In this document: positions 10,080 through 36,663 of the stretch, in pieces
Position numbering within the stretch: position 1 is the first letter of the stretch
Layout: every line of letters starts with the position of its first letter
IMG/VR virus record: IMGVR_UViG_3300009034_000007
Coordinates: 1-64,000 of that record
Source: a virus
Length of the DNA: 64,000 nt
Reading direction: 5' to 3' (one strand)
The notes under the pieces: model-generated
Told to the model about the DNA's origin: nothing
What the model saw: only the letters and a program-made list of their open reading frames with translations
The model's database searches: none
Made by a program: the position numbers and the translations under genes

Positions 10080-10685
10080 TTAGGCCATAAATTCAAGTTG
10101 ATTAATAAAATCTTCCCAATCCGTATTCAGTAAGTTGATACAAAGACAGTTATTTCCCTCCCTTGCTAGTATCTTGGTAGAAGTACCAGGAATGTTATCT
10201 CCTTTCTTTCGATACTCACACTTTTTCATTAGATTATCATGATCAATAAAGCCACTTATGTCAAACTCAACATCGTTTTTAAGCCATTTTAAACTTTGCT
10301 TATAATTTGAGGGTAGGTTTAATCTAGAACAAATGTACAAATCAGAGGTACATTGACTAGGATATAATAATAAACTTCTAGCATTATATCTAACAGATTT
10401 TATATTAACAATTTGCTTTACATTTTTAATATCCCGTCCATCATCAGCACGATTAACATAAATATCAAAATCCAATTCGATTTCTATTCCGAATAGAGAC
10501 CGTAGGAAATTTTGAAAAGCTAATTCACCCAATTTTCCCATAGCAACATCAGCTAATTTTTTAGTGAGAGGTCTTTGTAAATCATCTCTACAAAAATCTC
10601 TACCATCTTTTTTATTCTCCCAAAATTTTAAGGCGAATTCAAAAGCTTTTTTTCTATCGTCTAGGGATAACACGTTATTCATCAT
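10080..10685 (-). CDS. putative PD-(D/E)xK restriction-endonuclease-fold protein
   Basis: GKLGELAF...DDGRD...VNIKS pattern. Confidence 0.5.
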   Translation of the reverse strand: MMNNVLSLDDRKKAFEFALKFWENKKDGRDFCRDDLQRPLTKKLADVAMGKLGELAFQNFLRSLFGIEIELDFDIYVNRADDGRDIKNVKQIVNIKSVRYNARSLLLYPSQCTSDLYICSRLNLPSNYKQSLKWLKNDVEFDISGFIDHDNLMKKCEYRKKGDNIPGTSTKILAREGNNCLCINLLNTDWEDFINQLEFMA

Positions 10686-10907
10686 TTAAGTCCGATTTAA
10701 TGGCTGGTATTTACCATCATATACTGCTCCAACTATCTTCATCATATCCTCACCTAAGTAAACTACGGTAGCACATGTAGGACAATTCGTTTTATACCAC
10801 GCCCTACCAATCTTATCAGTTGATTTCCACATTCTTCCACTCAATAGTGTATTACAACGTGGGCATCTTGGTCTTACACTAACTATATGTTCGCTACCTT
10901 TTCCCAT
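10686..10907 (-). CDS. zinc-ribbon protein
   Basis: CPRC...CPTC; start moved to MGKGSE. Confidence 0.55.
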   Translation of the reverse strand: MGKGSEHIVSVRPRCPRCNTLLSGRMWKSTDKIGRAWYKTNCPTCATVVYLGEDMMKIVGAVYDGKYQPLNRT

Positions 10908-11368
10908 TTCACACTTCCTTTGCCTAAACTTGCTGGACCAAAAGCACAAGGTAGAAGGTCTTTTAGTAACCATCTATTTTTTATCTCACCAGTTTCATCG
11001 ATGGCCATAATATCCATACGAGGTCCACCAAATTCATACTCAACCTGCCGACAAGCCCCACAAGATGTGACATCCCCTTTATTTCCCTCTGTACAAATAA
11101 CCATTGTCTCAATCCAAGTATACCCGTTACTCACAGCTTTAAAAATTGCTACTCTCTCAGCACATATTGTCAATCCATAGGAAGCATTTTCAATATTACA
11201 TCCTGAGTATACCGCCCTTTTTCGTGTGTCTGGATTAATAGCAATAACAGCACAACCCACTTTATACTTAGAGTATGGGGCATAAGCAAACTTTCTTGAT
11301 CTTAAGGCCATACCAATAGCCATACTTAGTTGATCCATTATTGACTCCTTTCTATCCTTAAAATTCAA
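10883..11368 (-). CDS. cdd: cytidine deaminase
   Basis: AYAPYS.YKVG, GCNIENASYGLTICAER, CGACRQ. Confidence 0.93.
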   Translation of the reverse strand: MNFKDRKESIMDQLSMAIGMALRSRKFAYAPYSKYKVGCAVIAINPDTRKRAVYSGCNIENASYGLTICAERVAIFKAVSNGYTWIETMVICTEGNKGDVTSCGACRQVEYEFGGPRMDIMAIDETGEIKNRWLLKDLLPCAFGPASLGKGSVKWEKVANI

Positions 11369-11820
11369 TCTCGGCTACAGGTGTACGTTTCATATCCTAT
11401 CTCCGCTAGATATAGAGCCTTCTCGATCTTTAGAGGCCATAGATTTGTGGGAGTAACAAAAGTTCCATTTCCTCGTGTGTCAGTAATCCACCAGAACTCC
11501 TGTAAGGCTTCATGTAACGCTCTGTACCCTGAACACCCATCTACCCCTAGATTATCATCCAAGACTGATGCACGTTTCTCAATAGTTCTCATGACAAAAA
11601 ATTGATCAGCATCTTCGATATCATCCATCACTAATGCGACAGCCTCATCAAGAAGATCGGCTATCTTTCCTTCCATAAAGGCTTCATAATCAGCCCATGC
11701 ATCGGGTGTTGGCTCTACAAAATTAGCATTAAGAACTTGATTACGACCTGCCACAAAACCAGTCACAAAACCTATTATTGTCCAAATCAAGACAGCTATT
11801 AACAACCTCGTACTCTTCAT
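11365..11820 (-). CDS. membrane-anchored hypothetical protein
   Basis: N-terminal hydrophobic helix. Confidence 0.65.
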   Translation of the reverse strand: MKSTRLLIAVLIWTIIGFVTGFVAGRNQVLNANFVEPTPDAWADYEAFMEGKIADLLDEAVALVMDDIEDADQFFVMRTIEKRASVLDDNLGVDGCSGYRALHEALQEFWWITDTRGNGTFVTPTNLWPLKIEKALYLAEIGYETYTCSRD

Positions 11821-12569
11821 TGTATATCCTCCATCCTTAGAATTCGTATCTCCATTTCATCCGCGTATTCCTTTACATCAATATATTTTTCCTCTGGAAT
11901 GTCAAAGACTGTACACTCTACTGGCCCATCAATCCAATTCTGCCACGCGGCACACATGTTAATTTTTTCCAGATAATGTATACCAACATGGCTCTTTGGC
12001 TCGATACCAGGAGTTGCCTCAGCTATGTCAGCAATCTCTAAATCAGGTTTAATATAAGTAATCTCACTAAAACGAATAGGTCTACGTCTTATTTTAAACT
12101 TATCAATAAAATCCCAATCTATATTATCTGAGTAACCTACATACGGACCTCGCTCATTAGCCAAATCCATAGCGGCTTTCCATGACATCCAACCTATATT
12201 AAACGCTACATCGTCACCAAAGTCTACACTTTTATCAGCTATATATTTCATTTTTAGAACTTCTAACATATCAGCAAAACCAAGAACATTGACACGTAAA
12301 CCCGAACTTCTATCGTTTTTCTGTAGTTTAAGGTTGTCTAAAGCCCTTATTCCTACACGGAGGACAGCTTCCATGTAGTCCCAATCGATTGTATACTCAT
12401 CATAAGTAAAACCTGCCAAGTTTAGATAACCTCTACCCTCATGAATGATAAATGCCTTCTCACCCATGATTTTTGTAACTTGTTTGATTACTTCCTCCTG
12501 AGTAGCACTATTGACTTCGTTCTTGGCTACTTGGATTGCTGTCTGTGCTGAGTGCCTTAACCAATTCAT
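11817..12569 (-). CDS. truncated, degenerate ribonucleotide reductase large-subunit-like protein (C-terminal half barrel)
   Basis: GYLNL, IRALDN, LGFADML, LANERGPY, ATPGIEP, AAWQNWID match NrdJ/NrdA C-terminal motifs in order; catalytic NPCxE and the CNL cysteine are absent. Confidence 0.7.
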   Translation of the reverse strand: MNWLRHSAQTAIQVAKNEVNSATQEEVIKQVTKIMGEKAFIIHEGRGYLNLAGFTYDEYTIDWDYMEAVLRVGIRALDNLKLQKNDRSSGLRVNVLGFADMLEVLKMKYIADKSVDFGDDVAFNIGWMSWKAAMDLANERGPYVGYSDNIDWDFIDKFKIRRRPIRFSEITYIKPDLEIADIAEATPGIEPKSHVGIHYLEKINMCAAWQNWIDGPVECTVFDIPEEKYIDVKEYADEMEIRILRMEDIQ

Positions 12570-12981
12570 CGTCTACCCTCACTAAACGTTGTGGTAATGA
12601 CATCGGAATAATATGTAGCGTAGCTACCGTGGCTCCTATTGGCATGATAACCCGATCATCGGTAGAATTCATTAAAAATAAACGAACTTCAAGATCGATA
12701 TCAGGAAACATAAGCCCATCTCCCATCAATACTGTTAATTCATGATTTGGCTTAAAAAGACCTAAGTATCCTGGAGGTATGTAAAATTTCAAACCAGGAA
12801 ATATCACTTTCCAGTCTCCAGATTTTATGAAAATATCATGAAACGTCCGAATTAAAATACTATCCTGAAGTATAATCGGATCAAAAGCACGTTCGTCAGT
12901 CTTTACGTAAGTTATTTCTTCAATTGTTGGCCATACAGTAAAATTAATATTGCCACCAAAATACTGCGGCTTGTTATCCAT
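12508..12981 (-). CDS. degenerate trimeric dUTPase-like protein
   Basis: GLKFYIPPGYLGLF..., LFLMNS...IGATVATLHIIP fold pattern; AGxDL, RSG, GxIDxDY and motif V lost. Confidence 0.6.
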   Translation of the reverse strand: MDNKPQYFGGNINFTVWPTIEEITYVKTDERAFDPIILQDSILIRTFHDIFIKSGDWKVIFPGLKFYIPPGYLGLFKPNHELTVLMGDGLMFPDIDLEVRLFLMNSTDDRVIMPIGATVATLHIIPMSLPQRLVRVDDELVKALSTDSNPSSQERSQ

Positions 12982-12982
12982 T

Positions 12983-13183
12983 TTATTCCTCCACTTTACC
13001 GATCCTGACTTTTGCTACCTTATCAACAGGTAAAAATTCCTCCTCGTCCAAAAGGCTACCAGGAACTTTATACCATAACCCTTCCATAACAATACGTTTA
13101 GCATACTCCCTGGCTTTTTCAACGGTTACTACTGTCCATTCAAATGTAGTATTCCATATTGTATACGCCCTCACATAAAACAT
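12983..13183 (-). CDS. hypothetical protein
   Basis: 66-aa ORF with AGGAG RBS. Confidence 0.6.
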   Translation of the reverse strand: MFYVRAYTIWNTTFEWTVVTVEKAREYAKRIVMEGLWYKVPGSLLDEEEFLPVDKVAKVRIGKVEE

Positions 13184-13184
13184 T

Positions 13185-13517
13185 TTATTTCTCCTTTAAC
13201 AATTCATACAGATATCCTTGTGCGTTGAAAATTATGGCGCATAAAATTTTTTCCAAGTCCTGTTCTACAGCCTTCTTAGAAAAACCTCGATGATGTAACC
13301 ATAAATCTAAAACATGTCGCAACTCAGATTTCATGTATTGATCTTTTGGTATTCCTTTTTGCCAGTTGTCACTATCTCTTAATCCTCCATCAGTTTGCAA
13401 CCGATGTTCATGCATGTACTCTCCAAATCTTTCTACTACTAATGGAGAATAAAAGCCCTCATAATCATATTTATCCAGATCATCATCACGTGTTGCACCA
13501 GTTTCAAATTTTCTCAT
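13185..13517 (-). CDS. dATP/dGTP diphosphohydrolase N-terminal domain (DUF5664-like) protein
   Basis: FETGATRD, DNWQKGIP, S.LRH, A.IFNA. Confidence 0.7.
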   Translation of the reverse strand: MRKFETGATRDDDLDKYDYEGFYSPLVVERFGEYMHEHRLQTDGGLRDSDNWQKGIPKDQYMKSELRHVLDLWLHHRGFSKKAVEQDLEKILCAIIFNAQGYLYELLKEK

Positions 13518-13526
13518 GAATCTCTC

Positions 13527-14090
13527 CTATTTAATTATGTCCAGTAATTGTTTTATATTTTCAATTCTAATTACATCATCATCATAATAATCTACACTCC
13601 ACTCTCTTACTAGATGAATCATTTGGGTAATATCTTTTAATTCTTCTATAACTCCCACTCGATCATCTACATAATATGACGGTTTCAAAAGTGATATTAT
13701 ATCACGCTTCCCACCATTTGTAGTAAAAATACGATCTGGCGTGTTACTTGGAAGCTCTGACCATGCAAACCAATCGTATGTGGTTGGAATAAGATCATCT
13801 TTTCGGGCTGTTAAATAGAAAATATCACAATATTCCGCAAGTTTCCACAGAACATCATAGGCATCTGGAAGTAGCTCTTCAACCGCATAAAGAGTTCGTT
13901 TTCCTACCAACATTTCTTTGAAAGGCTCAGAGCAACCATAAAAGAATCCCTCTGGCCAGCCCCAAAATTGTGACATTGTGAAATCCTCTGGCACTAAATT
14001 AGCATCTTTAGCAAACGCCAAGACTAGTTCATGCCAGCCGTATATCACTCCGTCAACATCAAATCCGACTTTAAACCTTTGTTCAACCAT
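13527..14090 (-). CDS. HAD 5'(3')-deoxyribonucleotidase (NT5C-like)
   Basis: FDVDGV, LTAR, K, VDDR. Confidence 0.8.
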   Translation of the reverse strand: MVEQRFKVGFDVDGVIYGWHELVLAFAKDANLVPEDFTMSQFWGWPEGFFYGCSEPFKEMLVGKRTLYAVEELLPDAYDVLWKLAEYCDIFYLTARKDDLIPTTYDWFAWSELPSNTPDRIFTTNGGKRDIISLLKPSYYVDDRVGVIEELKDITQMIHLVREWSVDYYDDDVIRIENIKQLLDIIK

Positions 14091-34722: not shown

Positions 34723-36663
34723 ATGTGTATCGTTATCTTCGGACATGTCATTTGTATAGAGTGGCCAGTTTTAATTGCTGTTATATCCTTTGTTCTAAGT
34801 GCATGGGGCTACGTAAAAATGAAGTCCCAAAAAGTATTGAATAAAGGTAGTACTATGGTTGGACGGTTGATTGACAGAATAACAGCACCACCTAAGAAAT
34901 TGATTGACAAAATTACCATGCCACTTATTAAGCTAACTGCTTTTTTCCTTTGGCAATGGGAATTCATGCGAAGGCATAAAATACTTAGATGGATATTTTT
35001 AAGTATAGCTATAATCGTAGCCCTAATTTATAAGGCGGCAGGTGGCGAGGCAGTTCTTCAAGTGGCTATGATGGTTTTGCAATTATTGTACGGTCTTGCT
35101 TTCATGTTAATGCAGTTTATTGGACTATTCTGGTTTTTGGCTAAACCGAAAACTATTGAAATTTTACCAATTGATAAAAATGTGACTACGTGGGATGACT
35201 ATTGGGGTCAACCACAAGTAGTTGAACTTATTACACAATGGGGCGAACTTATTAAAGGTCGGAAAGATTTTGATGAAATGGGAGGCGAAGCTGTAAGAGG
35301 TATTCTACTTATTGGTCCTCCAGGAACGGGGAAAACTCATCTTGCTCGATGTATGGCTGGTTCAACTGGTGTAGCATTTTATGGTATGGATGGTTCTGGT
35401 TTTAGAGCTATGTTTTGGGGTGTAGATATTCTTCGTATGATGGCCTTCGTTAATAAAGGAAGGAAATTAGCAAAAGAGTGGGGTGCTTGCTGGCTCTACA
35501 TTGATGAAGTTGACGCTTTAGGTAGTAGAGGAGCACCTGGACAAGCAGGAATGGGCATGTTTGGTGGTCGAATGATGGGACAAGGTGCATTAAATCGACT
35601 ACTAACGGAAATGGATGGTATTACCAAAATTTCTCTTTATGATGAATGTCAAAATAGAATACGTAGAAAGTTAGGTTATTCTGATATTGATCAGGGTACA
35701 GTAATGTTTGTAGCCGCCACAAATCAACCAGATTTACTTGATCCAGCTTTGCGGCGAGCGGGACGTTTCGATAAGACTATTGAAGTCGGTATGCCAGATA
35801 AAGCAAGTCGGCGTGCTGTGATTGAAGGTTATCTCGGTAAAATTCATGTAAAAGCTCAGAAGTGTCCATATTGCGATACTACAATTCTTGACAGAACTTA
35901 TCGTGATCGACGGGGAAATTGTGGAGCGTGTGGTGGTATGCTAACCGATATAGATATAGATGCTCTTGTACAAGATACCGCGGGACGTACGCCAGCCGAT
36001 ATCGAATCTGCTATTGTTTCTGATGCATGTAGATTAGCCTATTTTGATAACCGTAATACTGTCACCTTTATGGATATAGAAAACGCAATCCAGGAACAAA
36101 TGCTTGGGCTTCAAAATCCAATTTCTGATTTTGAACCTGAACAAAGACGTACAGTGGCAATACATGAAGCTGGACATGCACTTGTTCAGCACTTCTTGAT
36201 GGATGATGTTCGTTTAGTAAGAGTATCAATTATTCGTCGTGGTGATTCTTTGGGTTACTTAGACGCAAGAGCCAAAGAAGATATCTATGTTATACCTTTG
36301 GATAAACTTGTACGATCTATTAAAGTGGCTTTGGCTGGACATGTGGCTGTTGCTCTTGTGACTGGTGAAGAGTGGAGTGGTGCATTAAGTGATTTTGCTG
36401 GTATTCACAACAGGCTCATGGCGTTAGCGGCTCATGGTTATTTTGGTGTTTTTCCAATGGGGCCTGAAATTTGGAAAGACCACAAGATGAATGAAAGAAT
36501 TCAAAAGAAGGTGCGGCAATGGATTAATGAAACTTCAGAGTTATTGTATGAACACGGAGAAGCATTGGAAGCGTTAGTTAATGCTCTCTTAGAACATGAG
36601 GATATATCAGGCAAAGACGCTGTGGCTATCATTGAGGCACATGAAAAAGGCGGTGTCGAATGA
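34723..36663 (+). CDS. ftsH: FtsH-like membrane AAA+ zinc metalloprotease (M41)
   Basis: N-terminal TMs, GPPGTGKT, YIDEVD, AATN.PD.LDPAL.R.GRFD, HEAGH. Confidence 0.88.
   Translation: MCIVIFGHVICIEWPVLIAVISFVLSAWGYVKMKSQKVLNKGSTMVGRLIDRITAPPKKLIDKITMPLIKLTAFFLWQWEFMRRHKILRWIFLSIAIIVALIYKAAGGEAVLQVAMMVLQLLYGLAFMLMQFIGLFWFLAKPKTIEILPIDKNVTTWDDYWGQPQVVELITQWGELIKGRKDFDEMGGEAVRGILLIGPPGTGKTHLARCMAGSTGVAFYGMDGSGFRAMFWGVDILRMMAFVNKGRKLAKEWGACWLYIDEVDALGSRGAPGQAGMGMFGGRMMGQGALNRLLTEMDGITKISLYDECQNRIRRKLGYSDIDQGTVMFVAATNQPDLLDPALRRAGRFDKTIEVGMPDKASRRAVIEGYLGKIHVKAQKCPYCDTTILDRTYRDRRGNCGACGGMLTDIDIDALVQDTAGRTPADIESAIVSDACRLAYFDNRNTVTFMDIENAIQEQMLGLQNPISDFEPEQRRTVAIHEAGHALVQHFLMDDVRLVRVSIIRRGDSLGYLDARAKEDIYVIPLDKLVRSIKVALAGHVAVALVTGEEWSGALSDFAGIHNRLMALAAHGYFGVFPMGPEIWKDHKMNERIQKKVRQWINETSELLYEHGEALEALVNALLEHEDISGKDAVAIIEAHEKGGVE

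Follow-up and report, generated by a model that had tools for sequence, protein, structure and literature searches.

A half-barrel ribonucleotide reductase homologue lacking catalytic residues, probably retained as a non-enzyme, beside a putative dUTPase-fold protein in a phage-like virus

The virus recorded as IMGVR_UViG_3300009034_000007 in IMG/VR (96,729 bp, rated complete by CheckV) encodes a truncated homologue of ribonucleotide reductase (RNR) of 250 amino acids (aa), which has lost the residues required for catalysis and has probably been retained as a functional non-enzyme; this is the reading that we favour overall. The gene of this mini-RNR lies on the minus strand (positions 11817-12569) of the stretch of DNA that we analysed, i.e., the first 64 kb of the record (hereafter, the window). 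It overlaps by 62 nt (12508-12569) a second minus-strand gene at 12508-12981, whose 157-aa product is a candidate dUTPase-fold protein. Both open reading frames (ORFs) are uninterrupted, as stated by the original prediction, which was made from the sequence of the window and had described the two products as tandem dead enzymes.

The relationship of the 250-aa protein to RNRs was supported by motifs, sequence profiles, and structure. All motifs that the original prediction had quoted are present in the protein (GYLNL at residues 47-51, IRALDN at 74-79, LGFADML at 96-102, LANERGPY at 136-143, ATPGIEP at 185-191, and AAWQNWID at 207-214). Pfam model PF02867 matched with E=2.6e-11 (43.3 bits, compared with a curated cut-off of 23.9) at profile positions 231-342 of 523, and the best NCBIfam models were those of the B12-dependent NrdJ. 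A HMMER search of 1.8 billion representative sequences returned 145 matches that were nearly all full RNRs; the best of them (P0002, P0003, and P0004) were small class II-like proteins with 34-42% identity. A structural match to RNRs was obtained with Foldseek, where NrdJ of Thermotoga maritima (1xje) ranked top (E=1.5e-9). With VIA-align, ~240 residues were aligned to R1 and NrdJ structures (Z 20-23), and PDB entry 7rw6 was also among the VIA structural matches. An AlphaFold2 (AF2) model based on an 85-row alignment reached a predicted local distance difference test score (pLDDT) of 86.7 and a predicted template-modelling score (pTM) of 0.85, and the single-sequence (ESMFold-type) model of the stand-alone protein in ESM Atlas had a pTM of 0.86. 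The ORF aligns collinearly with RNRs over the whole stretch between finger loop and C-terminus. It does not comprise a complete ten-stranded barrel: only profile positions from ~215-231 onward were matched, and full RNRs align to the ORF only from their residue ~270-300 on.

With regard to the start of the gene, the public gene call (P0001) begins at Met35 and yields a protein of 216 aa. The 250-aa form is favoured because the ATG at position 12569 has a Shine-Dalgarno (SD) site, specifically a GAGG core at proper spacing that lies just upstream of the overlap and inside the dUTPase-like gene, whereas the internal ATG of Met35 has none. Such sites were found for 36 of the 55 ORFs of the virus (65%) against a background of 9%.

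We compared the protein with 53 bona fide RNR segments at 63 columns that were each at least 80% conserved among them. The 250-aa ORF retains 30 of these 63 residues, compared with a mean of 58 and a minimum of 42 in true RNRs. The thiyl-radical Cys (column 94% conserved) is replaced by Met35, and the finger-loop motif NPCGE reads KIMGE (12459-12473), in which the Glu is retained. At the redox Cys of CxLGSxNL (column 100% conserved) the alignment shows a gap beside an Arg, and the first Cys of the redox pair belongs to the absent N-terminal half. Both the conserved-column table and the alignment place KPDL (residues 174-177; 12039-12050) where RNRs have the substrate-phosphate loop APTG, and the Asn of RN, SKTxN (SKTIN), and KGxTxYRD (YRD) are also lost. 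The scaffold residues that are retained are LDN, G..LGFAD, Tyr109, LA.ERG, Arg166, and GIEP. These alignments agree with the claimed loss of the N-terminal half, the radical Cys, the redox Cys, and APTG; the radical loop, which had been described as missing as well, partly persists as the KIMGE relic. The 250-aa protein is very probably not a dUTPase partner enzyme and, as these losses show, it is neither a reductase nor half of one.

The last point can be examined further, since a fragment of this kind could belong to a split or trans-complemented active RNR, in which the ORF would be the b-piece, as in NrdA-a/NrdA-b of Aeromonas phage Aeh1 or NrdJ-a/b of Thermus phage phiYS40. Split functional RNRs are common among phages (PMC3045599, PMC3653736), and the break point of the mini-RNR is a typical insertion site of mobile elements. 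However, six-frame searches of the whole 96.7-kb genome, which CheckV rates complete, found no PF00317, PF00268, or PF13597 and no second place with PF02867, so that no RNR N-domain, small subunit, or class III enzyme was detected in it. Consistently, tblastn with 13 full RNRs matched only nt 11820-12521 (best E=2.6e-24, all else being noise at E>0.1), and residues 1-270 of the 13 RNRs had no tblastn match in the record. The original prediction had named a complementary N-terminal half as the finding that would restore a normal split RNR, and these searches found none anywhere in the genome. Moreover, even a partner protein could not bring back reductase activity, given that the radical Cys, the redox Cys, and the phosphate loop are missing from the fragment itself. 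Split phage RNRs have been described only with both halves and the catalytic residues retained (PMC3045599, PMC3653736). As neither the complementary fragment nor the catalytic residues are present here, we regard a split RNR as effectively refuted and assign it a vanishingly small probability.

Both ORFs show the signs of real genes, i.e., normal codon usage and SD sites, and the 250-aa protein is recorded on 2 contigs. At the composition of the genome, the chance of an open frame is ~1e-9 for 250 codons and ~1e-5 for 157 codons. The codon-usage log-likelihood was 0.34 bits per codon for the 250-aa ORF and 0.23 for the 157-aa ORF, compared with 0.29 +/- 0.06 for the genome (47 long ORFs) and about -1 for the two wrong frames. 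A programmed frameshift fusing the two ORFs was rejected: the RNR frame is shut by a TAG two codons before the ATG, and the 62-nt overlap contains no slippery heptamer.

These properties bear on the alternative that the mini-RNR is a decaying remnant, in which a cassette RNR would have been truncated (e.g., by a mobile element at the finger loop), leaving a functionless C-terminal piece beside a dUTPase-like ORF that would itself be a drifting relic. The finger loop is a known hot spot of inteins and endonucleases, and inteins in relatives such as P0006 sit exactly between NPC and GE. Decay would also fit a singleton with no close orthologue, in which half of the RNR-conserved positions are lost, in a phage that contains no further RNR parts. 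Nonetheless, divergence that erased all catalytic motifs should also have brought stop codons, and the 250-codon frame is open against the odds given above. The codon usage and SD site are typical for the genes of this genome, the overlaps couple the 250-aa gene translationally to the genes on either side, phage genomes seldom keep 750 nt of junk, and purifying selection acts demonstrably on a truncated family that is related to it, as described in the following paragraph. We therefore consider decay unlikely and prefer retention as a non-enzyme.

This related family includes P0008, P0147, P0148, and P0149, which share 47-66% identity and are all 201 aa long except for the shorter-called P0149. 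P0008 is annotated merely as a hypothetical protein of a Ca. Kariarchaeaceae metagenome-assembled genome (MAG). The family matched the 250-aa ORF by BLASTP (E=1e-11, ~25% identity) and aligns with its residues ~30-185. Its members keep the finger-loop Glu, have lost the Cys residues and APTG, and retain 9-14 of the 63 conserved RNR columns. On the metagenome contigs L003-L005, the gene order is HAD, MazG, a small ORF, and the mini-RNR, followed by an HNH endonuclease gene. The mini-RNR genes of L003 and L005 differ by 8 synonymous and 3 non-synonymous codons (ratio of non-synonymous to synonymous polymorphism, pN/pS, ~0.10; binomial P=2.5e-4), compared with a pN/pS of 0.22 for the flanking MazG gene and 0.33 for the HAD gene. 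Judged from these codon differences, the P0008-type fragments are under purifying selection. In a maximum-likelihood (ML) tree, the 250-aa ORF grouped with the P0008 family (SH-aLRT 94) in a clade that sits inside a fully supported group with P0002, P0003, P0004, and P0040. The two mini forms may represent one old family or two parallel reductions, and under both readings selection is able to preserve a truncated RNR fragment that is catalytically dead. A full class II-type RNR of 660 aa occupies the same slot on viral contig L002, in a cassette of NT5C, nucleotide kinase, RNR, and MazG genes, and this arrangement probably resembles the ancestral cassette. The proposal that selection has acted on both ORFs is plausible on indirect grounds, namely their intact frames, normal codons, and SD sites and the pN/pS of ~0.1 in the related family.

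No relatives were retrieved from IMG/VR when P0008 or the family profile served as the query. A search of GTDB genome contigs did not recover P0008 itself, and the family profile gave only distant matches there (26-28% identity) in candidate phyla radiation (CPR) and Aminicenantes MAGs. In tblastn searches of phage records, P0008 had no match and P0046 retrieved only full RNRs. Match H13 was rejected as a mini form, being part of a 1,172-aa protein. We also did not count a 1,330-member viral cluster of ESM Atlas labelled "putative RNR (fragment)", which probably consists of amplicon or partial sequences according to BFVD entries named "Fragment [uncultured virus]". NPCGE and APTG are also lacking in two more short RNR-like proteins, P0083 (317 aa; a weak N-terminal all-alpha RNR domain and the second barrel half only) and P0046 (301 aa; profile positions 230-487), which may be independent cut-down RNRs or gene-call fragments.

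The genes of P0008 and P0149 are located on contigs of 96,023 and 90,598 bp, which is near the 96,729 bp of our virus, and these contigs may be distant relatives of it that were mis-binned or integrated. A comparison of L003 (1-1927) with L005 (1-1906) showed the mini-RNR to be 97.9% identical and the upstream HAD/MazG region to be 83.8% identical with indels, and L003 carries an extra 62-aa ORF; this pattern resembles a mosaic made by recombination, in which the mini-RNR belongs to the conserved part. On L004, an ORF for a 119-aa Cys-rich, HNH-type endonuclease-like protein (1757-2116; no Pfam match at E<=0.1) lies directly downstream of the mini-RNR, a neighbour that fits a mobile-element history of the truncation.

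For the 157-aa protein (12508-12981), the data point with moderate confidence to a dUTPase fold without the hydrolytic motifs. It had no match to any Pfam, PHROG, or NCBIfam model; specifically, the trimeric dUTPase model PF00692 gave nothing at E<=1 for the protein and nothing in a six-frame search of the genome. A phmmer search of PDB sequences retrieved two dUTPases, 8y1q (E=0.0023) and 4gk6 (E=0.11). Its neighbours in ESM Atlas were divergent phage dUTPase-like clusters (feature score 0.96), and the Atlas model (pTM 0.65) resembled dUTPase families with template-modelling (TM) scores of 0.70-0.75; a single-sequence AF2 model reached a pLDDT of only 41. As reference we used motifs I (AGxD), II (PRS), III (GxIDxxYxG), IV (RIAQ), and V (RGxxGFGS). 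In both PDB alignments, PRS of motif II is replaced by PNH with a 6-residue deletion and the Tyr of motif III is gone, the catalytic Asp of motif III being kept in one of the two. Motif IV reads TVAT, the motif V arm is absent, and the Asp of motif I may survive. The original prediction had stated that the fold was kept and that all catalytic motifs were lost. The first part is supported with moderate confidence, and the second holds for motifs II, IV, and V and for the Tyr of motif III but may not extend to the Asp of motif I and possibly that of motif III. We expect that the 157-aa protein, too, is probably non-hydrolytic. Its identification as a dCTP deaminase was rejected, as Phe occupies the position of the catalytic Glu in the alignment.

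A different reading of these residues is that only the RNR piece is dead and that the 157-aa protein serves the cassette as an active, though extremely divergent, enzyme of the dUTPase/dCTP-deaminase superfamily. This would be in line with the position of its gene among nucleotide-pool enzymes, with the Asp that is kept in motif I and perhaps also in motif III, and with the nearest Atlas clusters, which are large sets of divergent phage dUTPase-like proteins. On the other hand, both PDB alignments show the loss of the Arg and Ser of motif II, the Tyr of motif III, the Arg and Gln of motif IV, and all of the motif V arm; the protein likewise has no Glu of the dCTP-deaminase type, and the PF00692 model is blind to the protein even at E=1. 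In our estimate, an active enzyme is doubtful.

The suggestion that the two proteins act as a pair was not supported. An obligate pair gets no support because the dUTPase-like gene is absent from the P0008-type cassette: on L003-L005, the sole related cassette that was recovered, the mini-RNR has no such neighbour. The 157-aa protein thus appears not to be a conserved partner of the mini-RNR.

Several observations weigh against the retention of both proteins as functional non-enzymes. No orthologue above 42% identity was found among the 1.8 billion representatives, so that selection is not directly measurable. Word-based homologue searches with either ORF retrieved only the query itself. The confidence of the AF2 model of the mini-RNR is owed in part to a multiple sequence alignment of full RNRs. 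When the P0008 family was left out of the tree, the 250-aa ORF had no supported position, and its tie to this family could be long-branch attraction. Moreover, NT5C/MazG cassettes are common around viral RNRs, and the shared gene context could be convergent. The dUTPase fold was recognised from one weak sequence match and a language-model library, and a novel catalytic arrangement in the 157-aa protein is conceivable.

The two genes are part of an unbroken string of minus-strand genes that runs from 14090 to 10883. It starts with a 187-aa HAD/NT5C-like 5'-deoxynucleotidase (13527-14090; PF06941 E=6.7e-4; phrog_420), which is homologous to the HAD upstream of the P0008-type mini-RNR (BLASTP E=2e-6 to L004:3-539). 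This is followed by a 110-aa protein (13185-13517) with a weak resemblance to DUF550/dATP-dGTP diphosphohydrolases (PF18909 E=0.0089, below the cut-off; phrog_18716), whose weak match suggests an all-alpha nucleoside triphosphate pyrophosphohydrolase (NTP-PPase). A 66-aa ORF with a good SD site and no family match (12983-13183) lies between the NTP-PPase-like and dUTPase-like genes. Downstream of the mini-RNR are a 151-aa ORF with a hydrophobic N-terminus and no family match (11365-11820), whose first 4 nt (ATGA) are also the last 4 nt of the mini-RNR gene, and, as the last gene of the string, a cytidine deaminase of the tetrameric cdd type with the CDA fold (10883-11368; PF00383 E=1.6e-14; TIGR01354 E=8e-36, above the cut-off). 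The last four genes (157-aa, 250-aa, 151-aa, and cytidine deaminase) overlap by 62, 4, and 4 nt. All genes of the string are on the minus strand, and a scan for promoters and terminators gave no signal beyond the shuffled expectation.

To explain the mini-RNR, we propose that its gene descends from a class II-like RNR that is normally placed in the viral NT5C/MazG nucleotide-metabolism cassette. The ancestor would have lost the first half of the barrel and the residues for radical chemistry, thiol redox, and substrate-phosphate binding, and the remainder would have been kept as a folded, free-standing alpha/beta half-barrel. Full RNRs are hubs of nucleotide-synthesis complexes. The mini-RNR would have a non-catalytic role, most probably that of a binding or adaptor protein, which we infer from the fixed position of its gene within a coupled series of genes for pool editing and from the precedents of protein-binding viral R1s. 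Its partner would probably be a neighbouring pool enzyme (the HAD nucleotidase, the NTP pyrophosphohydrolase, or the cytidine deaminase) or a host nucleotide enzyme.

The more specific roles that had been suggested, i.e., inhibitor, sponge, and decoy, are speculation. Among these, a nucleotide sponge seems less likely because the phosphate-binding loop is destroyed. The dimer interface and dimer helices of class II RNRs lie in the N-terminal half; as this half is missing, the mini-RNR is unlikely to poison a host NrdJ dimer in the classical way. Pairing of two copies into a homodimeric pseudo-barrel would be an attractive way of burying the exposed face of the half-barrel.

It is also possible that the half-RNR and/or the dUTPase-fold protein serves in anti-defence or host takeover by binding and neutralising a host protein. 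Candidates for the target are the host RNR or dUTPase (through a dominant-negative effect), a CDA-fold dCTP-deaminase defence enzyme, or a sensor of phage nucleotide enzymes. This would have parallels in animal viruses, where inactive betaherpesvirus R1 homologues (HCMV UL45, MCMV M45, and HHV-6B U28, of human cytomegalovirus, murine cytomegalovirus, and human herpesvirus 6B, respectively) have acquired new functions and block host signalling (PMC11772975, PMC5469499), and where gammaherpesvirus R1 proteins bind the CDA-fold deaminase APOBEC3B (PMC12282084). The occurrence of 7rw6 among the structural matches, the end of the gene string in a CDA-fold deaminase, and the mixed trimers that trimeric dUTPases could in principle form are also compatible with such a binder. 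However, PADLOC matched neither ORF to any defence family, no other defence-related match was obtained, and the position of the class II dimer interface speaks against subunit poisoning of a host NrdJ, as noted above. We hold a binder of this kind to be rather improbable. A broader idea, to which we attach very little weight, is that half-barrels form a small selected viral class that folds by itself, perhaps by pairing of halves, and binds CDA-fold deaminases or nucleotide enzymes. Such a class could be the phage counterpart of the herpesvirus R1-APOBEC3B interaction and of dead-R1 evasion, for example against host dCTP-deaminase or dNTP-depletion defences.

The minus-strand arm of the genome (from ~31 kb down to 0.4 kb) contains replication and nucleotide genes, including PolA, RecA, DnaB, a primase-like Toprim protein, a PD-(D/E)XK nuclease, and four DNA methyltransferases (three N6/N4 and one MT-A70), and the plus-strand arm contains the structural genes. 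PolA was at best ~27% identical to that of cultured phages, and IMG/VR scans with both ORFs and the two flanking genes found zero relatives. The virus is an orphan. No ThyA, ThyX, RNR of any class, or canonical dUTPase was found in the whole genome. The virus does encode a cytidine deaminase, an NT5C-like nucleotidase, a DUF550-like NTP-PPase, and four methyltransferases, a set which suggests that it relies on salvage or on remodelling the host pools. Downstream of the cassette, a 201-aa ORF (10080-10685, minus strand) weakly matched a PADLOC model of a type II restriction enzyme (E=0.0065) and had no further family match. A 95-aa zinc-ribbon-like ORF (10686-10973, minus strand) shares, as listed, ~90 nt with the 3' end of the cytidine deaminase gene, and the true start of this ORF or of the cytidine deaminase is probably further downstream. 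An FtsH-like AAA+/M41 protease is encoded at 34723-36663 on the plus strand.

If the mini-RNR is a functional non-enzyme, a highly conserved enzyme of DNA-precursor synthesis can be reduced to a half-barrel and reused. It is an old idea that the barrel shared by RNR and pyruvate formate-lyase (PFL) arose from two half-barrels, and a functional mini-RNR would bear on this origin. It would also extend the pseudoenzyme strategy of herpesvirus R1 proteins to phages and flag the unannotated P0008-type family ("hypothetical protein") for catalogues of viral auxiliary metabolic genes. Surveys that use RNR as a marker gene could otherwise count fragments of this type as reductases by mistake. Should the mini-RNR be no more than a relic, it would be just one more ordinary example of gene decay, in an orphan phage.

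When compared with known systems, the mini-RNR is closest in sequence to class II NrdJ-type viral RNRs (570-660 aa; e.g., P0003 and L002:4789-6771, with 1xje as structural reference), with 29-36% identity over the common part. It shares with them the predicted second half of the ten-stranded barrel, the motifs RxLDN, GxxxLGFAD, LAxERG, and GIEP, and the NT5C/MazG cassette, but it lacks their N-terminal half, specificity site, dimer helices, and catalytic motifs. Similar to the P0008 type, it is a short, free-standing, dead second-half fragment with a helical extension at its N-terminus and a relic of the finger loop in which the Glu persists, and its gene is likewise preceded by a homologous HAD gene and by an NTP-PPase gene. 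The P0008-type proteins differ in that they end ~65 residues earlier, before GIEP, and have no dUTPase-like neighbour.

The genes-in-pieces RNRs of Aeromonas phage Aeh1 and Thermus phage phiYS40 are likewise fragments of an RNR large subunit in phages, and in these as in the mini-RNR the break probably goes back to a mobile-element event near the active-site loop (PMC3045599, PMC3653736). Those phages, however, have retained both pieces with intact catalytic residues, from which the enzyme is reassembled, whereas the mini-RNR has neither the other piece nor the residues. The 157-aa protein would share with trimeric dUTPases (PF00692) the all-beta fold and the beta-strand pattern around motifs II-IV, but differs in having no Pfam-level match, no catalytic motifs, and no motif V arm. 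Roles of viral dUTPases beyond catalysis have been documented (PMC8961515, PMC5608427, PMC10815766).

In function, the nearest parallel to the mini-RNR may be the herpesvirus R1 proteins, which are also viral homologues of the RNR large subunit that have lost catalysis; their retained protein-binding role is known, and that of the mini-RNR would be analogous. Unlike the mini-RNR, the herpesvirus proteins are full-length, occur in animal viruses, and have known host targets, whereas the mini-RNR is a half-barrel of independent origin in a phage-like virus. Given these dead R1 proteins (PMC11772975, PMC5469499) and non-canonical viral dUTPases (PMC8961515), the statement of the original prediction that no system like this had been described was too strong. 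A truncated, catalytically dead RNR half-barrel in phages was not reported in the literature that we searched. Thus, dead RNR homologues and non-canonical dUTPases are already known from animal viruses, and what appears to be new here is the half-barrel form in a phage.

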